DNA from: a virus
Direction: 5' to 3' (one strand)
Length of the DNA: 64,000 nucleotides
IMG/VR virus record: IMGVR_UViG_3300045988_172839
Coordinates: 32,001 to 96,000 of that record
Positions 386 through 63,984 of the stretch are shown here, piece by piece. A program made the translations under genes and the position numbers. Numbering within the stretch: the stretch's first letter is position 1; each line of letters begins with the position of its first letter. The notes beneath the pieces were generated by a model that saw only the letters and a list, made by a program, of their open reading frames with translations, made no database searches and was not told the DNA's origin.

Positions 386-1120
386 TTAAAATACTTCAAG
401 GTCTTTTTCCAGTTTTTCGGAAGTTGGGATACCCAAAACCTCAGTGGCGAAAATAGTATTTGCTGCAAGTACATAAGGTGTTACATACAAACCAAGTAAC
501 CCACCTGTTGCAAACACACCTAGAACCCACCAAAAGAAACTCATGTTTTGTACGAACAAAGTCATTTTATGACCTTTCATCTTCTGCTTACTTTCTTTAA
601 GAAGTGCAAACAAACCAAGTTCTTCATTTGTTTTTGCTAGATAAACCGCTAATGCGTACTCATAAGTTTTTATCAAACCAATGAACCCACCAAAGATCAA
701 TAAAGCAACACCAAGCCAAAATAGTATACCAAAGCTATTTGACACCAAAGCAGCGACAATTAGACCGATACCAACTACATAAGGTAAGAAGAACCACAGA
801 CCAATCATAAAACCAGCTAACAAAGCTGTTTTAAAGGTGTGAGCAGTCAGACTACCAAACATATCCGAAATCTTACGACCTAACTGTTTTTCTACTAGGT
901 GGTGTTTCGTTAAAATGTCAAATAGATAAAGACTTGCACATAGTTCATAGAGCAAAGTTAGTCCAGAGATAGCTGAGGATACCCCTGTGGCACTTTCGTT
1001 AAACGCAAAAGCTAAGTTTACTAAAACAAGTACCAAACATGGTAGACCTAAAGCCAACCACAAATTGTCTTCAGCAATCATCTGTTTAGCTTGCTTTTTA
1101 ATTTCTTGTCTGGATTTCAT
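386..1120 (-). CDS. Polytopic membrane protein, DUF975-like.
   Basis: 244-aa ORF with AGGAGG RBS (1131-1136) and its own promoter and terminator. It has about 6 hydrophobic helices. The N-terminus MKSRQEIKKQAKQ... resembles DUF975 family starts (from memory). Confidence 0.55.
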   Translation of the reverse strand: MKSRQEIKKQAKQMIAEDNLWLALGLPCLVLVLVNLAFAFNESATGVSSAISGLTLLYELCASLYLFDILTKHHLVEKQLGRKISDMFGSLTAHTFKTALLAGFMIGLWFFLPYVVGIGLIVAALVSNSFGILFWLGVALLIFGGFIGLIKTYEYALAVYLAKTNEELGLFALLKESKQKMKGHKMTLFVQNMSFFWWVLGVFATGGLLGLYVTPYVLAANTIFATEVLGIPTSEKLEKDLEVF

Positions 1121-1155
1121 AAAATCAAGACCTCCTAAATTTTCATAATAGATAT

Positions 1156-1184
1156 AGTATAACAGAACTTATAAGTATTTGCAA
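1156..1184 (-). promoter_or_regulatory. Sigma-A type promoter TTGCAA-17-TATACT.
   Basis: -35 at 1179-1184 and -10 at 1156-1161 (revcomp), 17-bp spacer. Confidence 0.55.
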
Positions 1185-1200
1185 TAAATTTATTAAATAT

Positions 1201-1231
1201 AGCAAAAAGAAAGAGAGGTTTACCTCTCTTT
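1201..1231 (-). terminator. Rho-independent terminator after ORF 1235..1906.
   Basis: Stem aaagagagg/cctctcttt (1210-1218 / 1223-1231), loop ttta, then CTTTTT on the minus strand. Confidence 0.65.
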
Positions 1232-1234
1232 TAC

Positions 1235-1906
1235 TTAAATTTCAACAAAAGACTTATCGTAAACAGAACTTCCTTTCAACATCAGCTCTAACATCTTATC
1301 TGTGTCACCATCAAGCTCGTAGAAATCTAACCCACGGTCAATCTCCGTACCATCTGCGGTTTCAATTACATAGTGGTAAGTTGCACCTTTAAGATAGTCA
1401 TTATAAATTGCTAACACATAGTTTACCATATCTAAAATATCACGCTCAATAGATTTTGTAATACGCTTAGTGTCATACCATCGGTAAATTTCGTCACGTG
1501 TTGCGAAGGCGAAACCTACAAAATCTCTATGTGGTTCATATTCAGTTGTAAATTTAAGAGTTGGATAGTAGTCTAAAGACATTGTAGGTTCACTAAATAA
1601 TGGAACTGCATAAACATTAGCAGTCTTATAGAAAGATTCAACCAGCTTATCTACAAACTCTATTAAATCACGACTCTTCAAACGTAATTGTTCTGTAAAA
1701 CCAACCTTAATGTAATCATCTATAAATTCAGCCATCTTTGGATATCTATGAGGTTGTATTGAAGTAAACTCAGGAAACCATGTGAAATATCTACACAAAG
1801 TTCGAGTCCACTCTTCACTCAACGGAACAACATTTGGCTCGTCTCTGTAAATTGTCATTATGTCGCCAGAGTTGTTTTTCAACTCAAAATAAATCTCTTT
1901 TTCCAT
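1235..1906 (-). CDS. Hypothetical protein.
   Basis: 223-aa ORF lying 3 nt downstream of the stop of ORF 1910..4600, on the same strand. No motif recognised. Confidence 0.65.
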   Translation of the reverse strand: MEKEIYFELKNNSGDIMTIYRDEPNVVPLSEEWTRTLCRYFTWFPEFTSIQPHRYPKMAEFIDDYIKVGFTEQLRLKSRDLIEFVDKLVESFYKTANVYAVPLFSEPTMSLDYYPTLKFTTEYEPHRDFVGFAFATRDEIYRWYDTKRITKSIERDILDMVNYVLAIYNDYLKGATYHYVIETADGTEIDRGLDFYELDGDTDKMLELMLKGSSVYDKSFVEI

Positions 1907-1909
1907 AAA

Positions 1910-4600: not shown

Positions 4601-4636
4601 AGTTAAGTAAAACCTTTCGATTTAATCTACTAACTA

Positions 4637-4670
4637 TCAGAAAAGGTATGTGGAAAAATCCAGCATACCT
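4637..4670 (-). terminator. Rho-independent terminator after the ParB-HNH gene.
   Basis: Stem aggtatgtgga / tccagcatacct (one bulge), loop aaaa, then TTTTCTG on the minus strand. Confidence 0.6.
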
Positions 4671-4686
4671 ACCTAATCATCAAAAT

Positions 4687-6330
4687 TTATTTTGAACTCA
4701 CATCTAATGCAGTTCGTAATGCTAAGTCATTCTTAATGTCTTGTCCGGGGAATTTATGACCTAGACTTTCTTGAGCTTTCTTAGCACGTTCTTTACGAGA
4801 ATAACCTTTCTTCTCCCCTGCTTTAATCGCAATGTAAGCAAGAGACCAAGCATTTAAAATTCGTCTACGGAACTCTTCATCCATAGTGTCTAAATGCTCT
4901 TTATCTGTTGTAAGAGTTCCCATTTTCTCCATAGTATGCAACAAATGGTGGCAACCAATACACAAGGTAATCAAGTTCTTCTCATCATCTGTTCCACCTG
5001 CGTGAACTGGAACTTTATGGTGAACTACCAACTGAGACAAGAAAGCACCTTGGTTTTCAACCTTATCTTTAGAGCAACACTGACAAACCATTTTGTCTCT
5101 TGCTTTAATCTTGTTCTTAACCTCTGGAGTTAAATCATCATCTCCATCACCTTTACGGTCTTGAACAATACCCTTATCCACTGCATCTGCTTGTTCTAAA
5201 GCACTCTCTAAGGTCAAGTTATCCATAGAGTTATCTGCTAGTTCCAGAAGTTCATCAACCTCTTGAGCGCTCAGTTTGTTATTACCTGAGTTTTCACCTT
5301 CTTCAGAAGAACCATCATTTTCACTTGAACTACCCTCTTCATCAGACACAACTGCTTCCTTACCAAGCTCAGTCGAAGAGAGGATACCCTTATTGTCTTC
5401 CTCCTCAAGTACATCACGCTCTTTCCGTTGTTTTACCAACTCTTTATAAGCTTTGTCCAATGTGTACTTACCTGCAAACAACTCAGTCATAGGCTCTGGG
5501 TAAGTATCAGACTCACTGCAGACCTCTTTCAATTTCAGAACATCTCCACTCTCCAAATAAGGGTACAAACGCTCAATTTGAGAGAACTTCAAACCATATT
5601 CGTGTTCCAAGGTAGAAAGTCCGTTCCAAATCTCTTGGTAATTGTGTTGTTGTTGCTTATTCAAAATCAGACCCAGCAAAGGAACCAAACGTTGTGCTTT
5701 CTCATAATCTGCAAAATGCCACACAAAAGCTGGAATAGTTTTGTAACCATTACGAGATGCACCATAAACTCGACGGAGACCTGAAATCAAAGTGTACATT
5801 TCAATTTCTTCACCATCTACCGAAGGTAAAGCCAATACATCAATAGGGTTTAAAACTCTACCAAAATCTTCAATCGAAGCAGTCAAACCATTCTTAGTTG
5901 CAAAGCGAGCCTTTTTATCAAACTCCGTAATGACAATCGACTCAATCGGTAAATCCATACGCAACTCACGGTCGTATTTCAAGCCACTAAGAATCTTATC
6001 AATATCCTCAAATGGACTAAGTACCGAAGGAGTTTCGGATACCCCTACAATATCTACGGGTGTTTCTACTTCTAAACCTTCTAACTCAGAAAGACTCTCA
6101 GAAGCTCCTATTTGCTCCGTGTCGAGAGTTTTTTCCGAGTCGATATTTTCCCCACCTACTTCTTCTAAATCGACTGTGGGCAATTCTGAGGCCTCAGGAG
6201 ACCACTCTACAACTTCTTCTCCTACCTCTGAATAAGGTACTACTTCTTCTCCAACTAGAGCTTGTTCTTGACTAGAAGACACACCAACTTCTAAGTCGTC
6301 TAAGTCTCCCCATAAATTATCTTTATCCAC
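4687..6330 (-). CDS. ParB/Srx-like N-terminal domain fused to a C-terminal HNH endonuclease through a long acidic linker.
   Basis: ParB box-II-like LISGLRRVYGAS. HNH signature: CQCCS...VVHHKVPVHAGGTDDEKNLITLCIGCHHLLH. The N-terminus and linker are acidic and low-complexity. Confidence 0.75.
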   Translation of the reverse strand: MDKDNLWGDLDDLEVGVSSSQEQALVGEEVVPYSEVGEEVVEWSPEASELPTVDLEEVGGENIDSEKTLDTEQIGASESLSELEGLEVETPVDIVGVSETPSVLSPFEDIDKILSGLKYDRELRMDLPIESIVITEFDKKARFATKNGLTASIEDFGRVLNPIDVLALPSVDGEEIEMYTLISGLRRVYGASRNGYKTIPAFVWHFADYEKAQRLVPLLGLILNKQQQHNYQEIWNGLSTLEHEYGLKFSQIERLYPYLESGDVLKLKEVCSESDTYPEPMTELFAGKYTLDKAYKELVKQRKERDVLEEEDNKGILSSTELGKEAVVSDEEGSSSENDGSSEEGENSGNNKLSAQEVDELLELADNSMDNLTLESALEQADAVDKGIVQDRKGDGDDDLTPEVKNKIKARDKMVCQCCSKDKVENQGAFLSQLVVHHKVPVHAGGTDDEKNLITLCIGCHHLLHTMEKMGTLTTDKEHLDTMDEEFRRRILNAWSLAYIAIKAGEKKGYSRKERAKKAQESLGHKFPGQDIKNDLALRTALDVSSK

Positions 6331-6336
6331 TTTAGC

Positions 6337-8830: not shown

Positions 8831-9763
8831 TTAAACTGTAACTAAAGCTACATTGACCACAATGTAATACATATCAGATTCTTCAAAAACCTCTGCTTTT
8901 ACTCCAAATCGACCAAGGTGGGGAGTTTCTAAAATGTAGGACTTAGACTCAATCTCTTCTTTCCCACAAGTATCAACCCATGTGTGGATTTGATTTTTGG
9001 GGATACCGCTGACATGTTCTACTGGGAATTTAGCATATTTCTCAGCCTTAGATTTATCTGTATAAACTTTAACTGAGGTTTTTCGACTTAACACTTGAGG
9101 TTTTTCATCTAAACCATAAGTCTTCACACAATGAATTGCTAAACCAACTGCATCCAGTTGGTCTTGGTAGCCACTCTTTAGATAAACTTCAAAGGAATCG
9201 TATTCTCGCCATTTGTTCGCCCAAGGATGTGCTAACTCTTGCAAGCACAAAAGAATTTCTTCTTTTTCTGCATTGTCTTTTGACCAAACTGCTTTCTTTA
9301 ACGGTGCTACACCAGTTTCAGAACGCAAAGTAGCTTTCCACGTTTTGTTGGATACCCTAAAGAACCGTTTGGCTTTTAAGACACCTTCTGCTAACAAGTA
9401 GTCAAGTGTAAAGTTCAGTGCGTAAGCTACAGAAGAGGTCTTCGCATTGTTTCCAAGCAATGCTTCTTCCACACACAACATATCAAGCTCCACTTCTCCC
9501 TTTAAAACTTTCATAAGCAAGAAATCTTTCAACTCTTGCATTCGAAGACCTACGGAGTAAGGACTATCTAAATCCTTAATAGAACTCTTCAAGTTAAAGG
9601 TTTCTAAAGTTTGTCCGTTCCAATAGGCGATACCAGTGGAGGTTTTAGACAAGTCTAAAGCCAAAACACTGTTTAAACCAAAGCGCTCAGAACCTTCTTT
9701 GAAGTAGTCTAAGTAAGTAAAACAAGGAGAACCCCCAAAATCTTCCATATCAAATGTGAACAT
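8831..9763 (-). CDS. RuvC-like (RNase H fold) nuclease with a C-terminal extension.
   Basis: VLALDLSKTSTGIAY (first Asp), LCVEEAL (Glu) and DQLDAVGLAIH (last acidic pair) follow the order of RuvC-family resolvase motifs. The start overlaps the stop of the upstream gene. Confidence 0.45.
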   Translation of the reverse strand: MFTFDMEDFGGSPCFTYLDYFKEGSERFGLNSVLALDLSKTSTGIAYWNGQTLETFNLKSSIKDLDSPYSVGLRMQELKDFLLMKVLKGEVELDMLCVEEALLGNNAKTSSVAYALNFTLDYLLAEGVLKAKRFFRVSNKTWKATLRSETGVAPLKKAVWSKDNAEKEEILLCLQELAHPWANKWREYDSFEVYLKSGYQDQLDAVGLAIHCVKTYGLDEKPQVLSRKTSVKVYTDKSKAEKYAKFPVEHVSGIPKNQIHTWVDTCGKEEIESKSYILETPHLGRFGVKAEVFEESDMYYIVVNVALVTV

Positions 9764-10389
9764 TAAGCAGAACTCCCTTCTGTACTTTTCTTAGACGACT
9801 TCACTTCAAGAACTTTATTAGTTATCAAGGTCAACTGTTCTTTCAAACCTTGTAAAGATAGAGAACCTTGGTTAAACTTCTCTTTCAAAGTCTCCACATT
9901 TTCTCTATGAATAGAGACTGTGTAAGGGGGAGCTTTTGAAAAGTCAAACTTAGACTTCTCTTCTTGAACCTCTACAATCGTATCAGTCAATTCAATACCG
10001 TAAAGTTTAGCTAAACTTTGCAAGTAGCCAAAACTATTAGGATAACGTTCTCCTAAGTATTGTTCTGCAAAGAGCTTATGAAATCCAATGATTGTACCTT
10101 TTACCCCACAACCAAAGCAGTTGAAAACCTCAATGCCAGTTTCACCGTCTTTGACGATACCGAGTGAGGGTTTTAAATCCTCATGGAAAGGGCAAACAAC
10201 ACGACTGTTCCCTGCACTAAACCTATAATCTGAATAGCGAGGTTGGTGTCTACAAACCACAACGTCCCAGTAGTTTGAAATGGTTACATCAAAGTGTCCA
10301 ATAAAGTTTTTGTGGTAAAGCAACTGTTCTTCCAACTGACGATAAGAGGCTTTAACTGTCCTTCTCTTAACTCTTGAAGTACCAATCAT
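9763..10389 (-). CDS. Stand-alone DnaG-type CHC2 zinc-finger protein (no TOPRIM domain recognised).
   Basis: CPFHEDLKPSLGIV...FNCFGCGVKGTIIGF matches the CHC2 primase zinc-binding domain. The protein is only 208 aa and its C-terminal part has no TOPRIM acidic motifs. Confidence 0.7.
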   Translation of the reverse strand: MIGTSRVKRRTVKASYRQLEEQLLYHKNFIGHFDVTISNYWDVVVCRHQPRYSDYRFSAGNSRVVCPFHEDLKPSLGIVKDGETGIEVFNCFGCGVKGTIIGFHKLFAEQYLGERYPNSFGYLQSLAKLYGIELTDTIVEVQEEKSKFDFSKAPPYTVSIHRENVETLKEKFNQGSLSLQGLKEQLTLITNKVLEVKSSKKSTEGSSA

Positions 10390-10658: not shown

Positions 10659-11320
10659 TCATGCACCGACTTTCTTTTTGGAAAAACACCTCGAATAAAG
10701 ACTGCTGAGACAAGCTCGTCAACTCGGATACCCTTGAGTGGTGTGTCAAAATATCCTTTAGGTTCTTTAAATTTATGGTGTTCTTGACCATCCCAAAATC
10801 CATAGGGTCGAAGTTGGATACTTTCTAGCAACTTAAACAACTCAGTTAAAGACAAGTGGAAAATTGGAACTAATCGATTATCTAAGCGCAAATGTTGTTC
10901 ATCTACCAAACTTGCTACTGCAAAAGGCTTTAAGTCATTCTGCTCTCCAATTAAACTTGGTAAGTAATTCAGGAATCGAACTACCTCTGCCAAGTATAAG
11001 TCTTTCAATTCTTTGATTGTGACGAGTGCTTGCGCATCCCGATACCCTAACTGCTTTGTATAGTGTTGTAGCAAGTGTTCTTGTACCACTAAATCTACAA
11101 CCTCAATGTAAACCAAAGGAGTTCCTTCAATGTCAGCAACCCAAAGCCAATCGTAAGCTAAACCTAAATCAACAACGGATCGAGCTTCACTACTATCTAG
11201 TTCCTCTTTATACAGAATAGTGTACTTGTTAGTAAACTCCAAGACACCTTCCATAAAGAGGTCGTAGAAATCTTCTACAAATTGGTCTAATATTTCTTTT
11301 GTAAACTGTTTACTAGCCAT
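10655..11320 (-). CDS. Hypothetical protein.
   Basis: 221-aa ORF coupled to its neighbours. Confidence 0.6.
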   Translation of the reverse strand: MASKQFTKEILDQFVEDFYDLFMEGVLEFTNKYTILYKEELDSSEARSVVDLGLAYDWLWVADIEGTPLVYIEVVDLVVQEHLLQHYTKQLGYRDAQALVTIKELKDLYLAEVVRFLNYLPSLIGEQNDLKPFAVASLVDEQHLRLDNRLVPIFHLSLTELFKLLESIQLRPYGFWDGQEHHKFKEPKGYFDTPLKGIRVDELVSAVFIRGVFPKRKSVHD

Positions 11321-12725
11321 TTAATATCTTTTCAACTCCTTCCCTTACTTTTTCAAATTCTAAAATTTCCCACGTGTTATAAGCACTTAATAACTCTTCT
11401 GAAACTCCGTCACTTGGAGCCAGCAAGATATTTGAGGATACCGAAATCAGTGAGTTCCAACTCTTCTTATTCATCGCTACGCTTGGAACACCATCCGTAT
11501 TGTTAATGAATATAGGTAGTTCATAAGTGTTATTGGCTACTTTCAAGAACTCAACCATACGGTAAACATTGAAATAACCTCTATAGGTTTGATCCAAGGG
11601 AAGTCCTCTCAAGGTATCTTTCAAGACAGAAACCAATAATTCCTTAGAGTAGAATGGTAACTGCAACTTTTGAAAGATTTCAGTTTTTGAACCTTCTGCT
11701 ACATACTTGTAACTTGCTTTATTCAAAGGAAAGACTTTTAAAGCAAATACTTGGTTGTACAGTTGGCGAAACTCAGATACCGAAAGAACACCTTCTAGGT
11801 CTTTTTTCTCCAACAAACCAAGGCAGATTAAAGCACCTAATCGAACATCTGAGACTGAACCTAAAGTCATTATCTTATCTAAATGACGAACTAAGTCATA
11901 AGGTACAAACTCTTCTGTGCCTGGTTCTTTACCGACTAAAGCAGACTTCAAGGCACTAGAGACTTCATTGGGTTGCAAAGCAAATTTAGCTAAGAATGAG
12001 TTGTAAGAAATATAGTAAGACCCATTTATTTCAAAACTATCACTTGATTTTGTTCCTCTCAAGTAATTCAGTACAGAAGTTTCTACGAACGTACCAACAC
12101 CTTTGACCGACAAAGGTTGGATACCCATTGAGAAAAGTCTGCTACGCTCAGTAAATGTTAAATTTACCAAAGTATGTTGAGTTAAAAAGGCACAAACAGT
12201 AGCGTAAGTCACACTTGGTAAAATATACACCTTCTTCTTAGACTTAGCACCTACAATATTAGTTAATCGCAACTCTAAATACCGAACCAAAGAGTAAAGT
12301 TGACTTGGACTCAACTCTAACTTACTTGCAACTCTCTCAATAGAATAATCTAACTGACCTTGTAAGTCTTGAACAAACTGAAAGTATTCATCTGTTAAGC
12401 TATCTGACCAATAATAAGGAGTATTAGTAAACAAATCTCTCACAATCGAACTAGGTCCAGACTCTAAAAACTTATCAATAAATTCTTTTTTGTCATAAAC
12501 CTCTTTTAACTGCTCTACTACTTTCTCTAAAGTATAAACACACAAAGAAGGTGCTTGTGAGAACAACACCTTACTTAAACGAGGGTAGGTATCCTTAGAG
12601 ATAACCTCTAAACCACCTTTTACTTTTACTACTTCAAATTGAGCTTGGGAGCGAACGTAGTCCTCAGACACCCTAAAGAACTGCGCTAAGTCTCCGACAC
12701 TCACACAAATTTCAAATTTAGACAT
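11313..12725 (-). CDS. Putative DNA-binding protein with two HTH-like segments (candidate initiator or helicase partner).
   Basis: The track ORF is 11313..12758. The ATG at 12725 has a GGAG RBS and an ATGTCTAA overlap with the helicase stop, so it is the likelier start. HTH-like segments: VSVGDLAQFFRVSEDYVRS and SIERVASKLELSPSQLYSLV. Confidence 0.45.
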   Translation of the reverse strand: MSKFEICVSVGDLAQFFRVSEDYVRSQAQFEVVKVKGGLEVISKDTYPRLSKVLFSQAPSLCVYTLEKVVEQLKEVYDKKEFIDKFLESGPSSIVRDLFTNTPYYWSDSLTDEYFQFVQDLQGQLDYSIERVASKLELSPSQLYSLVRYLELRLTNIVGAKSKKKVYILPSVTYATVCAFLTQHTLVNLTFTERSRLFSMGIQPLSVKGVGTFVETSVLNYLRGTKSSDSFEINGSYYISYNSFLAKFALQPNEVSSALKSALVGKEPGTEEFVPYDLVRHLDKIMTLGSVSDVRLGALICLGLLEKKDLEGVLSVSEFRQLYNQVFALKVFPLNKASYKYVAEGSKTEIFQKLQLPFYSKELLVSVLKDTLRGLPLDQTYRGYFNVYRMVEFLKVANNTYELPIFINNTDGVPSVAMNKKSWNSLISVSSNILLAPSDGVSEELLSAYNTWEILEFEKVREGVEKILNG

Positions 12726-14310
12726 TGATATCTCCAACATCCAAGACGACAGCTTCACCGTTCCGCATTTCTATCACTTGGTCTTTCATTTCTATCACAT
12801 TATTCGCAACCTTATCCGTAAAGACCGAAAGCGGAGCCATCTCCCCTGCTAAACGTGAAGGAAGTAAGTACATTTTGGCTATGTTCTTTGCAGACATAGC
12901 GTCATTTGTATACAACATCAAGTTTAAGTCTGCTGATTTTGTTAATTCTTTCGAATCAGCCGTAACGTTTCGCAACTCACGGTGGATACCCTTACCTAAA
13001 TCTTGAATAACATCAGTAGCCAACTGTGAAGGCAACCAAACACAAATATCTAATAAACCTTTCAATGTCTCTAAACGTATAGACAACTTCTCTAACATAG
13101 TTTTCTTATCAGGGTACTGACTGCTATCCATCGCTTGTGCGTAGTCAATAACGACAAACTTACACTCTTTTTCCTCTGCTGCAACTCGAAGAACGGTTTC
13201 AACCGATTCCAACTCAAACGGATAATCTGGTAAATATATTTTACCATAATTTGGGTTACTTACCAAGTCCATGCGAGAAATTTTTTCTAACTCTGCAACC
13301 GAGCTATCTAAAGTACCACGCTGAATGTCGATACCGGCAATCTTTTCGTAGTTTTGACCTCTTTGTACATTGTAGTAATAATCAAAGTGAGTTGCACGCA
13401 ACTCAGCCATTACCTTGCCCGACCCTCCTTCTTTCCCCCAAAAGCAAATACCGAAACCATTTAGGAGAATTTCATGAGACAAGCGAACTGCAAATTTCGA
13501 TTTCATACCCTTCTCTGGGGCTGCAAAGACCGCAAAGGTGTTGGTATAAATCCCACCAATCGTAGCACTTAATGTCGGTAAATGCTGCAAATTAGACAAC
13601 AAAGTAGGCTTGTTAGACTCTTCTTCCTCAAAGTCAATATCTGAGGCACAAACGAGCTGATAAGAGTTTTCTTTACCTAATGAAGCCTTAATACTATTGA
13701 CTTTCTGTGAAAGGAAATCAAGCGCACCTTCGATACCGAAGAATGATTTACGTTGAGACCGAATTGGGTTCGTTAAGGCAATCGAGGCTTGTTGCAAAGA
13801 GTCATTAAAGGCTAATTTTGCATAGACCAACTTAAAGCGGGTTAAGGCATCTTCAAAGGTCGGCTCTTTCAAGAAAGATGGGCTACGGTATTTTTGGTAA
13901 ACCTCTACTACTGAAACCAACAAACCTTCAATCGCAGTTGAACCCTCACTTACATAAGACTCAAATTGAATACGGTCAGTGTCTTGTGCAATCTCAGAAG
14001 CGTTTGCTTGCAAGTAAACTTTCAAATAGTCTAAGTCAAGCAACAACCCTCTTTCCATCTGTACTTTCTTCAACATAGAGTAAAGCACATAGTTCTCATT
14101 GCGGAAATAATCATTTTGCAGACGACCCATCTGACCTCTTAGAGAGTCGAAGTCTCTAAGAAGATACCCCATCACTTGGTTTTCATAATACTCAAGTTGA
14201 ACCTCTGGGCTTTTATCTGAAATCTCAGAAGGTGTAATGTCTGACACATAGGCAGACTCCGTTCCTTCTGCTTCAGACATCAATTCCCAAAGCTCTTTAT
14301 CTTCAAACAC
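12718..14310 (-). CDS. DnaB-like replicative helicase (RecA-fold) with a deviant Walker A.
   Basis: The Walker B region CKFVVIDYAQAMDSS resembles DnaB LIVIDYLQLM. The P-loop region reads AAPEKGMKSKFA rather than GxxxxGKT. GTG start. Confidence 0.55.
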   Translation of the reverse strand: MFEDKELWELMSEAEGTESAYVSDITPSEISDKSPEVQLEYYENQVMGYLLRDFDSLRGQMGRLQNDYFRNENYVLYSMLKKVQMERGLLLDLDYLKVYLQANASEIAQDTDRIQFESYVSEGSTAIEGLLVSVVEVYQKYRSPSFLKEPTFEDALTRFKLVYAKLAFNDSLQQASIALTNPIRSQRKSFFGIEGALDFLSQKVNSIKASLGKENSYQLVCASDIDFEEEESNKPTLLSNLQHLPTLSATIGGIYTNTFAVFAAPEKGMKSKFAVRLSHEILLNGFGICFWGKEGGSGKVMAELRATHFDYYYNVQRGQNYEKIAGIDIQRGTLDSSVAELEKISRMDLVSNPNYGKIYLPDYPFELESVETVLRVAAEEKECKFVVIDYAQAMDSSQYPDKKTMLEKLSIRLETLKGLLDICVWLPSQLATDVIQDLGKGIHRELRNVTADSKELTKSADLNLMLYTNDAMSAKNIAKMYLLPSRLAGEMAPLSVFTDKVANNVIEMKDQVIEMRNGEAVVLDVGDINV

Positions 14311-19226: not shown

Positions 19227-19412
19227 TTAATAGTCACGTTTAGGTTGCTCAGTATTGAAAATAACTGCTGCATAAATCCAAGTTTCATCGTGAGAAATTG
19301 AAACGCTTTGAATGTAAAAATCTTCGTTCTTGTTCAAAACACGCTCAATTTGTTGTTCTAAATCCACAGTAGTTTGACCACTAAAAATGCGTACTGTGCT
19401 CTTCTTAACCAT
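19227..19412 (-). CDS. Hypothetical protein.
   Basis: 61-aa ORF that overlaps the SNF2 gene stop by 8 nt. Confidence 0.45.
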   Translation of the reverse strand: MVKKSTVRIFSGQTTVDLEQQIERVLNKNEDFYIQSVSISHDETWIYAAVIFNTEQPKRDY

Positions 19413-21132
19413 GTAAAGTTAAACCTTCTTTCGTTTCTTCTAAATCATCCGACCATTTAGGGTGAGAAACAACTCCGTTCATATCTTGGTTCGAGTAGGA
19501 TACTGCTATAATAGATGAATTTGCTCCCTCTGAAATCTCTTGCTTAGTAACTTCCACCACAGTATTTACTAGGTCTGGGTCTAAAAAGAAATTGTTCAAT
19601 AAGCTAACTTCATGTTTGGTATGAGCTAATCTATCTTTCGTACTCACACAAGCTTCTTCTAAAACTTTATACTCTTCTCTTCTAGCTAAAACTAAGTAAA
19701 TATGCTTATCATGAATATCTTGACTACGAACAATACGACCTTCAATCTGATTCGTAATCCCTGAATTTCCAGTGAAAGAATAAAATACCAAATGATTCAT
19801 AAAACCAAGGTTCAAACCTTTCTTCAAGTTAGTTACAATCACTCTGTAACCACCATCATGAAACTCTTTTAATTTCGCCTCTTTCTTCTTAGGAGTATTA
19901 TCCTCACCGTTTATAGTGAGAGCTTTTATTCCCAACCCCCCCAAAAAGCGAACTAAGATATTCTGAGCTTCAACAGAATGTACATAAATCAAGGCTTTGT
20001 CTTGACCTATACGGTATTTAAACAAATCTTCAATCACTTGCAACTTAGGTAAAACCTCTGGTGTAATTTCTAAATCGGGATCAAACCAAGAAGGTTCGTC
20101 CCAAACATAACGCTTATGTCTAGTTTTACTGAATAACTTGTTTTGGTACTGGGATGGTTTATACAAGACCAACTCACAAGTCGAGTTTTTAACGGATACC
20201 CCTAGCTCTTGACGAGCCGTTCCAAAAGCCATAAATCGAGTACAAACTTTAAACAACTCTGGGTCTTTGTAACCTAAAATTTGGTGTGTTTGGAAGGATT
20301 TCTTCACAAACAACTCTTCGAACTTGGTTTTTAAAGGCATAGATTCTGGGAAAAGGAAATTAAGCTGATTGTACATTCCCTCAATCGACTTCTCAAAAGG
20401 AGTGGCGTTCATTACAACTACATGGTTTGCAAACTTAGTTCGTACAGTTTTACAAGCCTTATAAATATCAGACTTCGTAGAACCCAACACCGAACCTTCA
20501 TCAATAAAGAAATAATCAAATTTACCATGTAACTTCGTAGTGTGTGCAAGCCACAACATGAAATCGTGACTTGAAGAGACTGCTGAATAAGAAGCAACTA
20601 CACCACTAAGATACCCTAACTCTTTTTGCTCTTTGATAAAAGCACTTACTTGGTTGGAGTCTCCTGTGGTTGTTGCTACATAGTCTCCTGTAAAGCGAAT
20701 TAACTCTTTTCGAGCTTGTGCAACCAAACCAACCTCAGTCAAAAACAAATAACGCAAAGGTTTACCTTTGGTACGTTGCTTCAAGGCTCCTACATGGTTA
20801 ATAACCGAAGCAACTGTAGCCGTTTTCCCCAACCCTACACTATCCATAATGAGAGCAGAACGAGCAGCTAAAATAAAGTGGACTCCGTAGGTTTGATACC
20901 ACCGTAGAGAACCTTTTGCTACACCTTCTTTTAAAGACGACTTTGTAGCAATGACTTGCTCTACTTGCTCAGGTGTTAAATCTAATAAACTATCTGCTAA
21001 CTCCGGAAAACCTACTTGGTCTTTATCCTCATTGGCTTTTTGAATAATGCTATCTAACAACTGGTAACGTTGTATAGGAGCTGATTTATCTATAAATCCA
21101 CCCTTGTAAAGTGAGACCTCTGTTACTGCCAC
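19405..21132 (-). CDS. SNF2/SWI2-family helicase-like ATPase.
   Basis: LRWYQ, DSVGLGKT (motif I), FFIDEGS (motif II), NATPFEKS (motif III), QIEGRIVRSQ (motif VI). GTG start. Confidence 0.85.
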   Translation of the reverse strand: MAVTEVSLYKGGFIDKSAPIQRYQLLDSIIQKANEDKDQVGFPELADSLLDLTPEQVEQVIATKSSLKEGVAKGSLRWYQTYGVHFILAARSALIMDSVGLGKTATVASVINHVGALKQRTKGKPLRYLFLTEVGLVAQARKELIRFTGDYVATTTGDSNQVSAFIKEQKELGYLSGVVASYSAVSSSHDFMLWLAHTTKLHGKFDYFFIDEGSVLGSTKSDIYKACKTVRTKFANHVVVMNATPFEKSIEGMYNQLNFLFPESMPLKTKFEELFVKKSFQTHQILGYKDPELFKVCTRFMAFGTARQELGVSVKNSTCELVLYKPSQYQNKLFSKTRHKRYVWDEPSWFDPDLEITPEVLPKLQVIEDLFKYRIGQDKALIYVHSVEAQNILVRFLGGLGIKALTINGEDNTPKKKEAKLKEFHDGGYRVIVTNLKKGLNLGFMNHLVFYSFTGNSGITNQIEGRIVRSQDIHDKHIYLVLARREEYKVLEEACVSTKDRLAHTKHEVSLLNNFFLDPDLVNTVVEVTKQEISEGANSSIIAVSYSNQDMNGVVSHPKWSDDLEETKEGLTLHG

Positions 21133-27489: not shown

Positions 27490-27700
27490 AATTTCTTAAC
27501 AAAATTAAAGTTTCCAACATAAGTTGTTTCTCACCTTACTCTTGCGCAGTGTACTGCGCAAGAGTCGGAGTTGAGGCGACTGCGACTACCCTCTATACAA
27601 TCCAAGACTTAGTTAGTCTCATCATGTTTTACTTTTTATACTTTAAAGAAGTTTAACTAATTGAGGATTTACCATAAATTGAACCAACGTTTGATGTAGC
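27490..27700 (-). ncRNA. Candidate TnpB omega-RNA (reRNA) scaffold.
   Basis: This is the region spanning the 3' end of tnpB and just downstream of it, where omega RNAs are encoded. It contains a locally GC-rich perfect 12-bp hairpin ctcttgcgcagt-gt-actgcgcaagag (27539-27564) without a T-tract. The extent is not determinable by eye. Confidence 0.35.
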
Positions 27701-28869: not shown

Positions 28870-29509
28870 TTTGAATCTCCTTTTTAATCTTATGTCTTAA
28901 ACCATATAATTTACCTGAAAATGAATGAATCAGTGCAATTATATCTTCAGCAAGTTCTTCAGATTGACTTTTACTCTCTGTTTCATTAGAAACAACAATA
29001 ATGGAAACCCCATGGAAATCGCAGATTTTCTCTAAGTAATGATACCCGAATCTTGTTAGTCGGTCTTTATAGAGAATATAAAGTCGATTTACTTTTCCTT
29101 CTTGAATTAAATCTATTAAGGAAAGCAATCCTTTACGATTATCATTTAACCCTGACCCTACATCTGTTTTGACAAGTAAGTTATTGACGTTTTGCTCAAT
29201 CGCAAACAACTTTACTTTATCTACTTGTCTTTCTAAATCTCCACGCTCTGCTTGTTTATGTGTAGATACACGAGCGTAAATGACATCAGACTTAGTTGTA
29301 GACCTATCCTCATAAAGCATGTTTTGTTTGTCTAAATAAGCGCAAACATCAGTAGCTAATACACGTCTATGTCCTGACTCCGTCTTATGATAAGGTATCA
29401 ATCCAAGTTTACAATACCGAATTACTGTAGGTATAGTTACCCCTAATAACTTAGCTACTTCACCTGTTTTATAAGTTGACTTCTTTAAAATTTCAGACTT
29501 CTTATACAA
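28862..29509 (-). CDS. tnpA: IS607-type serine recombinase/transposase with an N-terminal MerR-like HTH.
   Basis: YKTGEVAKLLGVTIPTVIRYCKLGLI (HTH) and VIYARVSTHKQ (catalytic Ser). The track ORF extends to 29548 (GTG). The TTG at 29507-29509 has a GGAGGTG RBS and is the likelier start. Confidence 0.85.
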   Translation of the reverse strand: MYKKSEILKKSTYKTGEVAKLLGVTIPTVIRYCKLGLIPYHKTESGHRRVLATDVCAYLDKQNMLYEDRSTTKSDVIYARVSTHKQAERGDLERQVDKVKLFAIEQNVNNLLVKTDVGSGLNDNRKGLLSLIDLIQEGKVNRLYILYKDRLTRFGYHYLEKICDFHGVSIIVVSNETESKSQSEELAEDIIALIHSFSGKLYGLRHKIKKEIQSE

Positions 29510-29596
29510 AAAGACACCTCCTTTCTTATTACAACTAAAGTGTAACACAAAAAGGTATATGTATCAAGTTTAGTATTAAAATTTTTAAAAATTTTG

Positions 29597-36781: not shown

Positions 36782-36861
36782 ACTGTAACCTCACATTCTT
36801 CAAGTCTAAATCCAATTCTAACTAAAAGCACAAAGCTATTATTCCAGACTTTGCACTTACA

Positions 36862-36890
36862 AGAATATCATAAATACCCTCGACAGACAA
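36862..36890 (-). promoter_or_regulatory. Possible internal promoter TTGTCT-17-(TG)-TATTCT.
   Basis: -35 at 36885-36890 and -10 at 36862-36867, 17-bp spacer. The match is weaker than for the other promoters. Confidence 0.3.
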
Positions 36891-36897
36891 CTATTTG

Positions 36898-48274: not shown

Positions 48275-49591
48275 TTAAAAACTATCAAACATATCAACCA
48301 TTTGGTCTGTAGACATTGGTTTTAAATCCAACTGCGCTTTTGCAATCGTGTTTTCATGGTGCGCTGCTTTGTCTTCCTTATGTTTTTGAGACATTTGTTT
48401 GCTTTCTAAAACCCTCTCATTGCCTTTAATCTCATTAACTTCAATACCTACAGAAGAGATTGAAGAAACGGAAGGAGTTGGAGCAAGCAAACCTCGATAC
48501 CCAAGGAGAAGTAACTGAGTTTCAATATCCCCTCGACCTAGGTTATTCAAAAACTCTAAAAGAGCCAAAATTTCTTCATTGTTGAATTTGTCAAATAAAT
48601 CTTTGTATAGCTTTAGTTCATCTTTGGTAATACCCAACACATGAAGCCCCAATGAAATGTAAAGACCTCTCTTAACAAACTCTCTCAAACCCTCAACAAA
48701 GTTCTTCAAACCAATTTCTAACATAGCAGTGTGTACTGTTTTTGTATAAAGAACTGTGTTCTTTGTTCTTAGGTAGTCTAAGAAATCAAAGTACAAACCT
48801 CTGTGCTTATTTACATCAAGAACTGCAACCACATCATCATAGCGAACCGAACCATAAGAACGGTACACATTCTCTAGTTGTTTTAAGGACTGACGGAAAA
48901 CACAATTTGAACGAACTGCAATCAACTCCAAAGCCGGTTTCTCGAAGGCGAAACCTTCTTCAGTCGATACCCAAGTCATAAGGTTCACATTATCTGCTAC
49001 GCTAGGTAACTCAATCTCAATCTTCAAATCCATACGAGTTTTCAAAGGCTCTAACATCTTCTGTGGGTCAGTCGTACAGAAGAAAAAGATAGACTTAGGT
49101 GGGGCATCTTCAGTAAACTTCAACATACTTTCTTGACCTGCTTTGGAAATCAAGTGACACTCATCAAAGATAAAAATAGAATACCCTGCAAATAGTTTAG
49201 GCATGGAAGCAGACTCTACAAACTGTCGGACTGCATCTACGTTCCCTGTTTTTGAAGAGTCCAATTCTTTAACTGAGAACAAATGTGTGGCATCTGCCGT
49301 CTCAATATAGTCATTCAAGTCTTGACACATCTTACATTGGTTGCAAGGTAACAAATACTCTCTATTCTTCCACTTACGGACTTGTTTATTCTCACACAAG
49401 ACCAACTTAGTAGACATACGAGCCATAGTTGTTTTACCACAACCACTTGCGCCTGAAATCATCACACAAGCTGGGTAGTCTTCTCCATCTTTAGAAGAAA
49501 AGCGGTTCAAAAGCTTTTGAACTGCTAACTCATTTCCGATATAGCGGTCTACATCTTTTGACCTGTATTTCGTTGCGAAATTTTCAGCCAT
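48275..49591 (-). CDS. DnaX (DNA polymerase III gamma/tau)-like AAA+ clamp-loader ATPase.
   Basis: GASGCGKTT (Walker A), Cys cluster LPCNQCKMCQD, IFIFDECH (Walker B) and FFFCTTDPQKMLEPLKTR (sensor) are collinear with DnaX domains I-II. Confidence 0.8.
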   Translation of the reverse strand: MAENFATKYRSKDVDRYIGNELAVQKLLNRFSSKDGEDYPACVMISGASGCGKTTMARMSTKLVLCENKQVRKWKNREYLLPCNQCKMCQDLNDYIETADATHLFSVKELDSSKTGNVDAVRQFVESASMPKLFAGYSIFIFDECHLISKAGQESMLKFTEDAPPKSIFFFCTTDPQKMLEPLKTRMDLKIEIELPSVADNVNLMTWVSTEEGFAFEKPALELIAVRSNCVFRQSLKQLENVYRSYGSVRYDDVVAVLDVNKHRGLYFDFLDYLRTKNTVLYTKTVHTAMLEIGLKNFVEGLREFVKRGLYISLGLHVLGITKDELKLYKDLFDKFNNEEILALLEFLNNLGRGDIETQLLLLGYRGLLAPTPSVSSISSVGIEVNEIKGNERVLESKQMSQKHKEDKAAHHENTIAKAQLDLKPMSTDQMVDMFDSF

Positions 49592-49592
49592 A

Positions 49593-53751: not shown

Positions 53752-53780
53752 AGTATAGCATGCCAATAAATAAAAGTCAA
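53752..53780 (-). promoter_or_regulatory. Sigma-A type promoter TTGACT-17-TATACT.
   Basis: -35 at 53775-53780 (inside the 3' arm of the upstream terminator) and -10 at 53752-53757. Confidence 0.6.
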
Positions 53781-53805
53781 GAGATAAATAGATACCCTCC
53801 TGACT
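53762..53805 (-). terminator. Rho-independent terminator after ORF 53812..54816.
   Basis: 9-bp stem (53775-53783 / 53797-53805, one G-U pair). The 13-nt loop contains one GGTATC motif copy. It is followed by TTTATTTATT on the minus strand. Confidence 0.55.
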
Positions 53806-53811
53806 TTTTTC

Positions 53812-57309: not shown

Positions 57310-57327
57310 GAAAATCTTACCTCAACC

Positions 57328-58590: not shown

Positions 58591-58608
58591 TCGTCTAAAC
58601 CACCTATT

Positions 58609-59913: not shown

Positions 59914-59916
59914 TTT

Positions 59917-61591: not shown

Positions 61592-61962
61592 AGACTTACC
61601 ACCATTATTTCTTGCACAATCACACCATCTGGTGTAGGAGTTTCCATACGAGAAAATCCTTGAAGTTTACTGCTTCTTAACCACTGCTCTCTCAATACTT
61701 GGTATGTTTTAGCAGACAGAGGGTTTGCACATTTACAACCCTCTTTTTCATTATAAACAGTTACCGCAACCGAAGTGGATACCCCTTTGAGATATAAAAT
61801 AGAGAACACTTGAACAGGTCTATATCGTAGAAGAGTATTGCTATCTAAGTCTTCTAAGTCCATTTTCTTGATTAAACTGTGACTCTTATGTGCTAAGGTA
61901 TAAACCTTAGAACCTACAATGAACTCAACCCCAGCATTAAAAGGTTTGCTACGAACTAACAT
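61588..61962 (-). CDS. Hypothetical protein.
   Basis: 124-aa ORF, first after the promoter at 62009-62037. Confidence 0.55.
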   Translation of the reverse strand: MLVRSKPFNAGVEFIVGSKVYTLAHKSHSLIKKMDLEDLDSNTLLRYRPVQVFSILYLKGVSTSVAVTVYNEKEGCKCANPLSAKTYQVLREQWLRSSKLQGFSRMETPTPDGVIVQEIMVVSL

Positions 61963-62008
61963 CTTCCACTTCCTTCTCTAATCTAAACTCTAAATTGCAT
62001 TTTTCTCA

Positions 62009-62037
62009 ATTTTACCATATTTAGAGGGAAAATGCAA
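62009..62037 (-). promoter_or_regulatory. Sigma-A type promoter TTGCAT-17-(TG)-TAAAAT.
   Basis: -35 at 62032-62037 and -10 at 62009-62014. Confidence 0.55.
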
Positions 62038-62060
62038 GATTTAGACGATAAAGAAATGAT

Positions 62061-63626
62061 TTATTTATTGGCAAGTTGTTCTTCAAACTTAGTAGTGAAT
62101 GTATTAAACACATTCATTAAGTCACTCAGAGACACACGTGGGTCAAGGATACCAAAGTAAAATCTCTCGATATTTGAGTAATCTGTCTCTAACTTCTCTC
62201 CTGACATAGTGAGAGCTGAACCATTACCAAAGTGATAAGGTTTACTATACTTACTAAATACTACACCACCGATAAATTTTACATCGTTTGTCCGAGGATT
62301 TTGTTTTTCTGCAAACCAAGATAACTTGTTATAAGCTAATTGGAAATCTAACTCACTTGTTGTATTCACTAAAGCAGAGTGAACCATTTCACCATATCCG
62401 TCTAAAGTGGCTTGTAGAGTAGCTACCCTTTCAAAGAAAGCAGACTCCATAAATTTTAAGATAAGGTCTTTCTCTTGAAGTAAAAGACCATGTTCACTAA
62501 CCATAGAACCTTTAATAGATGACCAGGCACCTTTATCTTTATCTTGTTCACTAATGTAAGGCACTAAATCCCCTAAAAGAGAGTACATATTGTACAAAGA
62601 TACCGCTCCGAAGGTGTTCTCCATAAATCGGTAACGTAAGTTGTGCGCTCTTTGTTGCTCCAATTCTTTTAAGAACTGCAAACGAAGAGAGACAGGTAAA
62701 GGCATGTTTAAACTATTAAACTCTCGAACAAACTTCAACAAATACTCAATCTTAGAAGTTGGTTTCGCAAAACCACCATCTACCAAACTTTGCCAAAAGC
62801 TAGGTAAGGCAAAGCCGAAATTCTTCTGATACCCTAACTGTTGACTATAAGAGTAAGCATAAGTCAACATTTCATTGAAATAGCGAGTACGGAAGCGTAC
62901 CAACTGATTTTGTACTTGACCTTCAATATTGAAGAAGTCTTGCACACAGTCTACTCCAAACTTCAAAACTTCTCCTGTGGCCTCTTCTTCGGCAACGAAT
63001 TCCCATTTAATGTCGTGACCTAATGTACATTTAGCGCCTATTTCAAAGTAGTTTAGCTCCTTGAAGAACCACGTTCCACCACCCATTAGAGTTGCTAGTT
63101 TTGCTGCTTTTTCTCTAAAGTAATCGGTGTCAGTATTTAACTCTAATTCAATTCTTTGAAGTCCTTCTTCATAAAAACTCTCTTGTAAGAACCAACGAGA
63201 CAAAAGTTTTCTCTTCTCTTCACTAAAAGTCTCAGAAAAATAGCGAACATAAGAGGATACCACTGGGTATTGTGAACCTTGGAAGTTCTTTAATACTGTA
63301 CTTGTTGTACGAGCTAAAACTGGAACCTTAATCGAACTGTTTTCACCCTCTTCAAAGTAAAGACCACTCTCTTTAATATGGTTCAAAACTTGTTCCGACA
63401 AGACTCTACTTTTATCAATAAAGGCAGTTGGTACACTAAAGGACTTTAGTTTCTTACCACTCTGCATATAAAATCCGTAGCGGTCTTTTTCTTTAAAGTG
63501 AATACAAACCACCTGTCTCGGACTCTCAACTCCAACATCAGCTAAGCTCTCAAACTCAGTTAATAGTTTAGCTCCACCATCTGTTAAGTGACTTTCAATC
63601 TCTCTAACTGGTTTTCGACTAACCAT
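62061..63626 (-). CDS. Hypothetical protein.
   Basis: 521-aa ORF. Confidence 0.6.
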   Translation of the reverse strand: MVSRKPVREIESHLTDGGAKLLTEFESLADVGVESPRQVVCIHFKEKDRYGFYMQSGKKLKSFSVPTAFIDKSRVLSEQVLNHIKESGLYFEEGENSSIKVPVLARTTSTVLKNFQGSQYPVVSSYVRYFSETFSEEKRKLLSRWFLQESFYEEGLQRIELELNTDTDYFREKAAKLATLMGGGTWFFKELNYFEIGAKCTLGHDIKWEFVAEEEATGEVLKFGVDCVQDFFNIEGQVQNQLVRFRTRYFNEMLTYAYSYSQQLGYQKNFGFALPSFWQSLVDGGFAKPTSKIEYLLKFVREFNSLNMPLPVSLRLQFLKELEQQRAHNLRYRFMENTFGAVSLYNMYSLLGDLVPYISEQDKDKGAWSSIKGSMVSEHGLLLQEKDLILKFMESAFFERVATLQATLDGYGEMVHSALVNTTSELDFQLAYNKLSWFAEKQNPRTNDVKFIGGVVFSKYSKPYHFGNGSALTMSGEKLETDYSNIERFYFGILDPRVSLSDLMNVFNTFTTKFEEQLANK

Positions 63627-63984
63627 AAGCTACACCCCATTTCTCGAACGTCCCATCTCCTTTAGACAAGGAACGTAGAATAACCTTCCATTGGTCAAAC
63701 TGAACTTTTTCTTCTAAGACTAGAGCCAAGCGAGAAAAATCAAGCGGATACCCTAACTGGTAAGCTTGTTTTAGAACGGTGTATAAAGCTCTGAAGAACT
63801 TGTCCTCTAAAACATCTGGGGAATTTGTTTGAATGTAACGTGTAAAACGTTCATAATCTACTACGAAATGTAAAGGACTGTTTTCAAACAATTCAACTAC
63901 ACCTTCATCCGAGACTGTAGACAAAACCAAACTAGAAGACAAGCGTTTTAGACGAAAACGCAAAATGTCTTCTTCCAAATACAC
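63619..63984 (-). CDS. Hypothetical protein.
   Basis: 121-aa ORF with a GTG start. It overlaps the downstream gene by 8 nt. Confidence 0.5.
   Translation of the reverse strand: MYLEEDILRFRLKRLSSSLVLSTVSDEGVVELFENSPLHFVVDYERFTRYIQTNSPDVLEDKFFRALYTVLKQAYQLGYPLDFSRLALVLEEKVQFDQWKVILRSLSKGDGTFEKWGVAYG

Follow-up and report, generated by a model that had tools for sequence, protein, structure and literature searches.

A dense, evenly spaced DNA word of single polarity in a giant plasmid-like element of the human mouth and in its relative pXO16

We analyzed a window of 64,000 nucleotides (nt), positions 32,001 to 96,000 of the IMG/VR virus record IMGVR_UViG_3300045988_172839, which is part of a giant element of human oral metagenomes that, judged from its genes, is related to the Bacillus thuringiensis plasmid pXO16. 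The window carries a short word, GATACC on the plus strand and GGTATC on the minus strand, about once per 592 bp and nearly always in the same orientation, and this word is functional, strand-polar and selected at the level of the nucleic acid. Selection at that level, which a preceding reading of the letters alone (the sequence-only reading) had also proposed, follows from codon-preserving shuffles, from the use of all three reading frames, from the persistence of the word in a tRNA array, from its conservation in a diverged family, and from its absence from unrelated DNA of similar composition. Positions given below without another record or locus are those of the window, and every window feature located by them lies on the minus strand.

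In an exact count over the whole window, GATACC occurred 108 times on the plus strand, in an array reaching from 428 to 63752, and GGTATC occurred seven times on that strand. The sequence-only reading had put these counts at about 108 and 6; its first figure was exact, and the second had missed the copy at 3032. Its example coordinates were correct to within 1 nt except for one given as 6048-6055, where the copy is actually at 6038. Against a zero-order expectation of 14.6, GATACC stands out more than any other hexamer in the window. The base 3' of GATACC was C in 50, G in 45, A in 11 and T in 2 of the 108 copies, and the base 5' of it was G in 50, A in 33, C in 17 and T in 8, in agreement with the earlier estimates of C or G after the word in about 95 copies and G before it in about 50. 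The coding, G-rich strand thus reads 5'-(G/C)GGTATC(C/T)-3'. No conserved sequence was found in the flanks of the copies.

The strand-polar enrichment stood up to shuffling of synonymous codons in which the protein sequence and the codon usage of each gene were preserved (200 shuffles). The coding strand held 106 copies in the genes, against 22.4 +- 3.9 in the shuffled sequences, where the maximum was 32, while the opposite orientation held 7 copies against 7.1 +- 2.4 (expectation, 7.1 to 7.8). One orientation is therefore enriched, and the other is neither depleted nor avoided. The copies on the coding strand were distributed 39/23/44 over the reading frames, so that all three are used, as had been claimed from a few examples. 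Within genes, the copies were spread flat across gene deciles without preference, and only 1 of the 108 lay close to a start codon. Two copies were non-coding. One of these, at 53791-53796, sits in the 13-nt loop of a terminator-like hairpin (53774-53806) with a 10-bp stem followed by a T-run, which was read directly in the sequence and had already been noticed.

The spacing of the copies was also far from random. With a mean of 592 bp, the coefficient of variation (CV) was 0.52, compared with 0.98 under random placement, and none of 5,000 simulations gave a value that low; the shortest gap between copies in the window was 130 bp. The GC content of the window is 37.7%, its GC skew is uniform at about -0.16, and all of its genes lie on the minus strand. 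The strand that reads GGTATC is the G-rich strand, and the same is true for the corresponding word of pXO16 described below. A skew between strands was also seen for GAAGAAG, the Lactococcus word for the FtsK-orienting polar sequences (KOPS), with 30/4 copies in the window and 282/18 in pXO16; this word is a Glu-Glu codon pair on the co-oriented coding strand.

We then asked what kind of replicon carries the word. The window proteins were found on contigs of 150 to 290 kb, all from human oral metagenomes, and IMG/VR holds about 20 near-identical copies of the element, up to 284 kb, catalogued as viral. No capsid genes were seen in the DNA read, and ATPases of the type IV secretion system (T4SS) type are present in the copies filed as viral. 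The element was not found among the GTDB genomes in either of two scans, and megablast of the window against phages and plasmids returned no match. Since one contig places an anchor gene 153 kb upstream of the helicase and another contig places it 127 kb downstream, the element appears to be a circle of about 280 kb. A contig of 242.6 kb resembles a smaller variant, which places the size at about 245 to 280 kb. From its gene content alone (FtsK-like and VirB4-like ATPases and a CHAP hydrolase), the oral element would be a conjugative plasmid-like replicon. Relatives were also present on metagenome contigs at NCBI, namely BNJT01000212.1 (477,247 bp; locus L177) and BNJS01002685.1 (268,293 bp; loci L159 and L176). 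The 477-kb contig may represent a bigger form of the element, a misassembled dimer or a junction of the element with other DNA; the k-mer table of L159 is made up mainly of a tandem hexanucleotide repeat of the GATGCT type (CTGATGC, 24/0).

The element shares with the Inocles its human oral metagenome habitat, its size class, a majority of unannotated genes and genes of the cell-surface adhesin type. Inocles of oral Streptococcus have a GC content of 32% (alpha to gamma) or 24% (delta), carry the marker InoC (PF13814, about 454 amino acids [aa]), and switch skew and gene orientation at ori and ter (PMC12340149). In contrast, the GC content of the window is higher, and no such switch was found. 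No match to PF13814 was obtained among the window open reading frames (ORFs) of at least 100 aa. Because of the GC content and the ori/ter switches of Inocles, the element is not filed as one.

The polarity of the word was sampled around the circle on long contigs that were reached through copies of an insertion sequence (IS) and stepwise through anchor genes. The sample covers about two-thirds to three-quarters of the circle, with a block of about 35 kb, a variable segment of about 35 to 40 kb and a few small gaps lying outside it. Gene orientation, the sign of the GC skew and word polarity were identical at every sampled oral locus, a typical one having 38 to 45 forward copies and 0 to 4 reverse copies per about 21 kb. 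Neither a gene on the opposite strand nor a polarity switch was found in any sampled oral locus. Apparent reverse-oriented genes at 16.5 to 20.9 kb of locus L103 were rejected, being artefacts on the antisense strand of a K/E/P-rich repeat gene cut off by the end of the locus. Very large repeat surface proteins of this K/E/P-rich kind, together with an AgI/II-type LPXTG adhesin, were encoded at 10001-13663 of L105/L125, 16464-20927 of L103 and 1-4165 of L001; the antisense strands of all these genes yield long spurious ORFs rich in S/G/F/L, and the genes are often assembly break points.

The density of the word was maintained in a 5.9-kb array of tRNA and transfer-messenger RNA (tmRNA) genes, with 11 copies in the usual orientation and 2 in the other. 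The array, at 15900-21800 of L125 (about 92.6 to 98.5 kb of IMGVR_UViG_3300008474_000001), comprises 10 tRNA genes and the element's own tmRNA, all on the common strand. Direct repeats of 34 to 40 nt, starting (G)GGGTATCGA, stand between the tRNA genes and may be promoters or processing elements.

The window also contains an IS607-like insertion (27643-29548) with TnpB and a serine recombinase, identified by Pfam, which is co-oriented with the replicon and contains two copies of the word in the usual orientation and a third in the opposite one. IS607-like elements occupied differing sites across copies of the element (L034, L035, L036/L038, L007 and L010), always co-oriented with the replicon, and several contig ends coincided with them. 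In the resident copies the word has its usual polarity, and an IS 69% identical to them in an unrelated contig (L037) is without it. Unrelated elements with related IS lack the word (2/1 and 6/3 copies) despite similar GC content and GC skew. Together with a plasmid that shares a host with pXO16 and lacks the word, these elements show that the word is element-specific.

To follow the word beyond near-identical copies, we used relatives of the window helicase. Four relatives whose helicases are 75%, 63%, 50% and 49% identical to it retain synteny, and unbiased k-mer scans returned GGTATC or GGGTATC as the top polar word in each, with 40/0, 77/2, 70/0 and 43/5 copies per about 21 kb. More distant loci agreed with this pattern. 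The word itself differed among branches, taking the forms SGGTATC, GGGTATC, GGGGTAT(C) and WGGGGTAK, of which the intermediate GGGGTAT(C) is carried by the oral locus L144. In orthologous genes, 26 to 28% of word positions were held in common at about 65 to 70% nucleotide identity and 13 to 21% at about 50%, which is 3 to 10 times the chance level; most sites had moved, with the density unchanged. A more distant relative, L108 (IMGVR_UViG_3300045988_184003, a 225-kb contig), has a DNA polymerase 37% identical to that of pXO16 and an extreme GC skew that reaches +0.4 to +0.58 across 21 kb; GGTATC is weak there (15/4), and GGGTA occurs 73/2 with Poisson-like spacing. The GGGTAT of L108 (33/0) was rejected as a family word, as composition probably explains it: the base that follows is free to vary, the spacing is Poisson-like, and the GC skew is +0.45.

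The only matches of the window helicase by tblastn in PLSDB were ten Bacillus thuringiensis plasmids of about 349.6 kb; the same search of a phage collection returned none. The plasmids are pXO16, also known as pBTHD789-1 (NC_018516; PMC6199540), the sole relative with an annotation, and the figures below come from one complete record, NZ_CP045024.1, whose PLSDB gene table is incomplete. All coding sequences (CDS) in that table lie on one strand, and the GC skew is positive in every 10-kb bin. The word of pXO16, (A/T)GGGGTA(G/T) or WGGGGTAK, occurred 658 times on the gene strand and 5 times on the other, about 530 bp apart, with 12 to 25 copies per 10 kb in all thirty-five bins and no switch of polarity around the whole circle. 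Within ORFs, there were 501 copies, compared with 119.6 +- 10.3 in codon-preserving shuffles, and 3 copies of the reverse word, compared with 4.3. The spacing was again under-dispersed (CV, 0.71), with 31 gaps shorter than 100 bp where 113 were expected. In 4.4 kb without CDS in the incomplete table, the word occurred 8 times in the usual orientation and 0 times in the other. About 95 of the 658 copies lie 5 to 20 nt ahead of start codons and could double as a ribosome-binding site (RBS), and frame 0 (Gly-Val) is preferred; an RBS explanation of the pXO16 word was rejected, as it accounts for at most those copies. Plasmid pBtoxis, which is co-resident with pXO16, had only 10 copies of the pXO16 word against 5 of its reverse per 50 kb.

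Homologues of eleven pXO16 proteins, 26 to 41% identical, occur in the oral loci, and the gene order matches. The common core consists of FtsK-like and VirB4-like ATPases, SpoVG, an SNF2 protein, the DnaB-like helicase, a pair of proteins with a CHC2 domain and a RuvC-like fold, an HNH nuclease, a DNA polymerase, a clamp-loader-like AAA protein, ParM and a large transfer protein. On the strength of these core proteins in their order, one gene orientation and a constant sign of GC skew, we place the oral element with pXO16-like giant unidirectional conjugative plasmids. The two differ in that pXO16 has WGGGGTAK instead of (G/C)GGTATC, a Bacillus host, and a size of 349 kb compared with about 245 to 280 kb; like the more distant oral relatives, it also encodes GyrB/GyrA-like proteins and a ligase close to the helicase. 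From helicase to CHC2 gene, pXO16 (NZ_CP045024.1, 26670-33635) has about ten consecutive genes of about 190 to 230 aa that look like an array of paralogues, and in the oral elements this interval holds proteins of 470 aa and 220 aa. The even spacing, the single polarity of the whole replicon, the family that includes pXO16 and the differences of the word among branches all go beyond what the sequence-only reading had described.

What is reported of pXO16 bears on the function of the word. Its CDS all have one orientation, and two reviews mention no DNA word (PMC6199540, PMC9673590). It transfers single-stranded DNA (ssDNA) with a distant T4SS, and the plasmids it mobilizes need an intact single-strand origin (PMC6199540). 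No relaxase or origin of transfer (oriT) is known, and transfer takes about 4 min (PMC9673590). We found 0 copies of the word in pUB110, which is well mobilized by pXO16, and 2 in pE194, a comparison that is anecdotal. Since pUB110 is mobilized without a copy, the word is unnecessary for entry into the transfer channel; and since mobilized plasmids need a single-strand origin and pUB110 lacks the word, foreign DNA would have to bring its own priming signal.

The properties of the word suggest a function that is strand-specific, that needs a site every few hundred bases and gains nothing from close pairs, that is indifferent to the reverse word, that is specific to the family, and that runs in the same direction around the whole circle. 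We tentatively favor signals that prime discontinuous synthesis on the strand exposed in single-stranded form during replication or transfer, because such signals fit these demands, the skew of the word strand toward G and the need of mobilized plasmids for a single-strand origin. Three points here are inferences: the identity of the single-stranded strand, the reading of the word by a protein with a zinc-binding domain (ZBD), and priming as the function. The word runs all round a presumed giant unidirectional conjugative plasmid, on the strand that is 5' to 3' in the direction of the genes, and this G-rich strand would be expected to be exposed as ssDNA when a fork or transfer moves with transcription. 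There the word would be read as the start signal for discontinuous synthesis of the complementary strand by an element-encoded priming system that would include a DnaG-type zinc-binding protein working with the element's own helicase and polymerase. The setting could be one-directional vegetative replication, with the word on the template of the lagging strand, or conjugation, with the word on the strand that enters the recipient, or the two together. A word of 6 to 8 nt would occur by chance every 4 to 30 kb, and selection for a primer every few hundred bases would raise it. Such selection would therefore produce several-fold enrichment on one strand, no long gaps, few close pairs and indifference to frame; it would likewise leave the reverse word unavoided and let sites turn over at constant density and the word drift between branches.

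A candidate reader is a stand-alone protein of 208 aa (9763-10389) with a DnaG-type CHC2 zinc-binding domain (Pfam PF01807), which aligns with the primase ZBDs of Aquifex and Geobacillus DnaG (2au3, E = 6e-5, and 1d0q). It is kept in all relatives, adjoining the helicase module, and its pXO16 homologue is 30% identical. The CHC2 domain is the template-reading module of bacterial and T7 primases. Primase ZBDs read a short template word in ssDNA, and primers are needed at intervals on one strand, as would be expected for the word described here, and the element has both a DnaG-type ZBD and a helicase. Known examples of primase words are 5'-GGGTC/TGGTC-3' of T7 gp4 and the trinucleotides of DnaG, and the plasmid primases Sog and TraC act on the transferred strand. 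The clade of giant Firmicute plasmids that includes pXO16 and the oral elements may even use a "priming code," in which a branch-specific word of 6 to 8 nt, every 300 to 600 nt on the single-stranded strand, is read by a zinc-finger primase, although we hold this wider proposal to be doubtful. The sequence-only reading had ranked priming first on the basis of the CHC2 protein and the helicase. The ZBD proved to be a genuine DnaG-type domain, and priming is still our best guess, but no catalytic primase domain was found in the window and the protein next to the CHC2 protein is RuvC-like.

Several results weigh against priming. Neither the window nor the oral loci yielded a catalytic primase domain, TOPRIM or archaeo-eukaryotic primase (AEP), and although pXO16 encodes a 261-aa Toprim_2 protein and its own DNA polymerase, the oral loci examined had no homologue of the Toprim protein. 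A split DnaG, formed by the CHC2 protein and its 310-aa neighbor (8831-9763), was rejected because that neighbor is RuvC-like and has no TOPRIM core. Its AlphaFold model (pLDDT, 85.7) has an RNase-H fold with an extra C-terminal domain of about 95 aa, and its top Foldseek matches are RuvC resolvases (4ktw, E = 4e-6; 4ld0; 1hjr); it has no Pfam match, and its gene is always operonic with the CHC2 gene, the same pair being present in pXO16 at 29 to 31% identity. A primase core in the conserved 481-aa protein directly downstream of the helicase (11313-12758) was likewise unsupported, the model being of low confidence (pLDDT, 63) and the matches helix-turn-helix (HTH)-like only. This protein has no Pfam or PDB sequence match and only weak small-domain structural matches (RacA, BldC, pSK1 Par, Xis and MerR); its probable architecture is a set of several small DNA-binding modules of the winged-helix/MerR-like type, and initiation, loading or reading of the sequence are possible roles. 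The T7 primase words, of which the oral word had reminded the sequence-only reading, are neither polar nor enriched in T7, so that T7 was rejected as a precedent for polar primase words and there is no precedent for such a genome signature. Known primase words are 3 to 5 nt long and need no genome-wide enrichment, and we know of no primase word of 6 to 8 nt that recurs regularly along a single strand of an entire replicon. On its own strand, the word was not unusually unpaired compared with controls, and no consistent difference in accessibility was seen. Finally, all genes are co-oriented, which makes the directions of replication, transfer and transcription inseparable by sequence alone.

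Other functions have to be weighed against the same data. The word could be a Chi-like signal that, on the 3'-ended strand, switches a helicase-nuclease (host AddAB/RexAB or an enzyme of the element) from degradation to recombination, and that would protect linear tails or broken forks of a large plasmid replicating in one direction or transferring by a rolling circle. Chi, as recognized by RecBCD, AddAB or RexAB, is polar, over-represented on the leading, G-rich strand and active on one strand, and the geometry fits: our word lies on the G-rich strand, points with the presumed direction of the fork, and is over-represented, polar and redundant with turnover of sites, in elements that encode extra helicases and nucleases. 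We consider this unlikely, if the least unlikely of the alternatives, since Chi is host-wide and the word is element-specific, being missing from pBtoxis in the same host as pXO16. In addition, known Firmicute Chi words were unenriched in the window and in pXO16 (GCGCGTG, 0/0; AGCGG, 26/13 and 83/51; GAAGCGG, 0/0 and 16/7), no AddAB-like gene was identified, and to our knowledge a 6- to 8-mer every 300 to 600 bp with about 99% polarity far exceeds any described Chi; even spacing with few close pairs is no known property of Chi. Of the earlier suggestion of a Chi-like regulator, then, a rival explanation survives, at odds with the unenriched Chi words and the wordless co-resident plasmid. Next in rank, and rather unlikely, is a signal in transcription or RNA, read on the non-template strand in the bubble or as SGGUAUC in the transcript by a processivity or antitermination factor of the element or an RNA-binding protein such as SpoVG, and needed since the whole replicon is transcribed one way. 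Consistent with it, the word is always on the coding (non-template) strand of genes that are all co-oriented, one copy lies in an intergenic hairpin loop, SpoVG is kept in the synteny block, and the tRNA array, where transcription runs the same way too, keeps the word. However, no known factor needs reloading every 300 to 600 nt, and neither the flat distribution over gene deciles nor the single-strand accessibility, which is not raised, speaks for such a reader. KOPS and the SpoIIIE recognition sequences (SRS) are short, G-rich, polar words over-represented on the G-rich strand, independent of frame, redundant and turning over, much like the word described here. A guide or loader of this kind for an FtsK/SpoIIIE-family transfer ATPase, with the single polarity giving one-way export of the circle, would suit a pump that threads an entire circle; transfer of pXO16 is reported to take about 4 min (PMC9673590), and an FtsK-family ATPase is conserved beside the VirB4-like ATPase. 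We rank it after transcription, as also unlikely, because the ssDNA transfer reported for pXO16 is intrinsically polar and needs no guide (PMC6199540), because pUB110 is mobilized without any copy, and because a gamma domain is undetectable in either FtsK-like protein: the last 190 aa of the window protein and the last 260 aa of the pXO16 protein matched neither Ftsk_gamma nor any other family at E <= 10, in a sequence test that a divergent fold might escape. Single polarity is itself a difference, as KOPS and SRS, at about one per 4 to 12 kb, switch at ori and dif, and our word is about 10-fold denser, evenly spaced and without a switch on the whole circle of pXO16 or the sampled oral circle. 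The orienting-sequence proposal of the sequence-only reading is weakened accordingly.

Strand-specific nicking or processing, by the ParB-HNH or the RuvC-like nuclease, could make the word a distributed oriT with many entry points, a source of 3'-OH primers for strand-displacement synthesis, or a set of T5-like nicks. HNH and RuvC-like nucleases are conserved, one-strand nicks would demand single polarity, and pXO16 has no relaxase or oriT on record (PMC9673590). We regard this as quite improbable, since one or a few sites suffice to start transfer and the density and even spacing are left unexplained, since the reverse word is not avoided although nicks in two strands would give double-strand breaks, and since pUB110 is mobilized without the word; nicking, which had been proposed before, is kept as a rival subject to these difficulties. 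More improbable still is an architectural role, with the word as a polar site in double-stranded DNA for an element-encoded segregation or organizing protein such as the multi-HTH 481-aa protein. That protein stands beside the helicase and has weak matches to the head-to-tail repeat binders BldC, RacA and Par, and even spacing suits an array; on the other hand, its model is of low confidence, pXO16 has no clear homologue at that position, and a polarity that follows genes and GC skew would be left unexplained. That the word has no function and is a by-product of composition, of codon or dipeptide usage, of the RBS or of a dispersed repeat is effectively refuted by the codon shuffles. The possible RBS copies and the preference for frame 0 in pXO16 are what could be said for it, against an excess of about 4- to 5-fold over codon-preserving shuffles in both replicons with all frames used, a single window copy near a start codon, flanks without conserved sequence, even spacing, and a word kept across 50% protein divergence and missing from skewed control DNA. 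Evasion of restriction also places all copies of an asymmetric word on one strand, as for EcoP15I in T7, where our k-mer scan recovered CTGCTG 36 versus 0 (L157), the classic single-orientation set, as a positive control. Such evasion of Type III/ISP enzymes depletes the opposite orientation and comes without enrichment, whereas the word is about 5-fold enriched with its reverse at expectation.

Other genes of the window were assigned as follows. The DnaB-like replicative helicase, of 530 aa (12718-14310; Pfam PF03796), which was the anchor for the search for relatives, has homologues from 99% down to 42% identity and is 26% identical to the pXO16 helicase (88% coverage; E = 2e-43). The putative transfer ATPases are neighbors: a 829-aa FtsK/SpoIIIE-family ATPase resembling a coupling-protein-like DNA pump (22580-25069; Pfam PF01580; PDB FtsK motor 2ius, E = 8e-9), with a pXO16 homologue 28 to 30% identical, and a 726-aa VirB4/TraG-like ATPase (25264-27444; weak Pfam AAA_10 and P-loop_TraG), which is 32% identical to a pXO16 protein over 689 aa (E = 4e-104). 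A ParB-N/HNH nuclease of 547 aa (4687-6330; Pfam HNH and ParB_N) is kept in relatives, has a pXO16 homologue 36 to 38% identical, and is the candidate strand-specific enzyme under the nicking explanation. An SNF2-family helicase of 575 aa (19405-21132; Pfam) stands in the synteny block conserved in relatives and pXO16, and a clamp-loader-like AAA+ protein (48275-49591; Pfam PF13177), similar to the delta' subunit of DNA polymerase III, is 35% identical to a pXO16 AAA ATPase (E = 3e-63). At 35069-39447 are a CHAP/GDSL cell-wall hydrolase (35069-36781; Pfam CHAP) and a large transfer-associated protein (36898-39447); 41% identity to a 1834-aa protein of pXO16 was obtained here (E = 1e-134). Most other window genes match no family.

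No earlier description of the word was found in the literature searched, the primary pXO16 papers (Makart 2015, 2018) lying outside it. From known polar words, the word differs in its single polarity over a whole circle, its strand purity of about 99%, its about ten-fold greater density, its even spacing and its family- and branch-specific sequence. Chi, KOPS and SRS each revealed a machine that handles DNA, and this word exceeds them in density, polarity and evenness of spacing and has no switch point. It defines a family of plasmids that reaches from pXO16, a laboratory model, to uncultivated elements abundant in the human mouth, and it is a simple marker by which fragments of the family, now filed as viral in IMG/VR, could be recognized and oriented in metagenomes. 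The transfer of pXO16 has long been puzzling, as it has no known relaxase or oriT, is very fast and mobilizes DNA without an oriT, and the word offers a sequence handle on it by predicting the strand and the direction that matter for replication and transfer in the family. If a priming code exists, it would let a single strand of 250 to 350 kb become duplex fast after replication or conjugative entry. It would then be a new class of genome-architecture signal and would explain why foreign DNA needs a single-strand origin.

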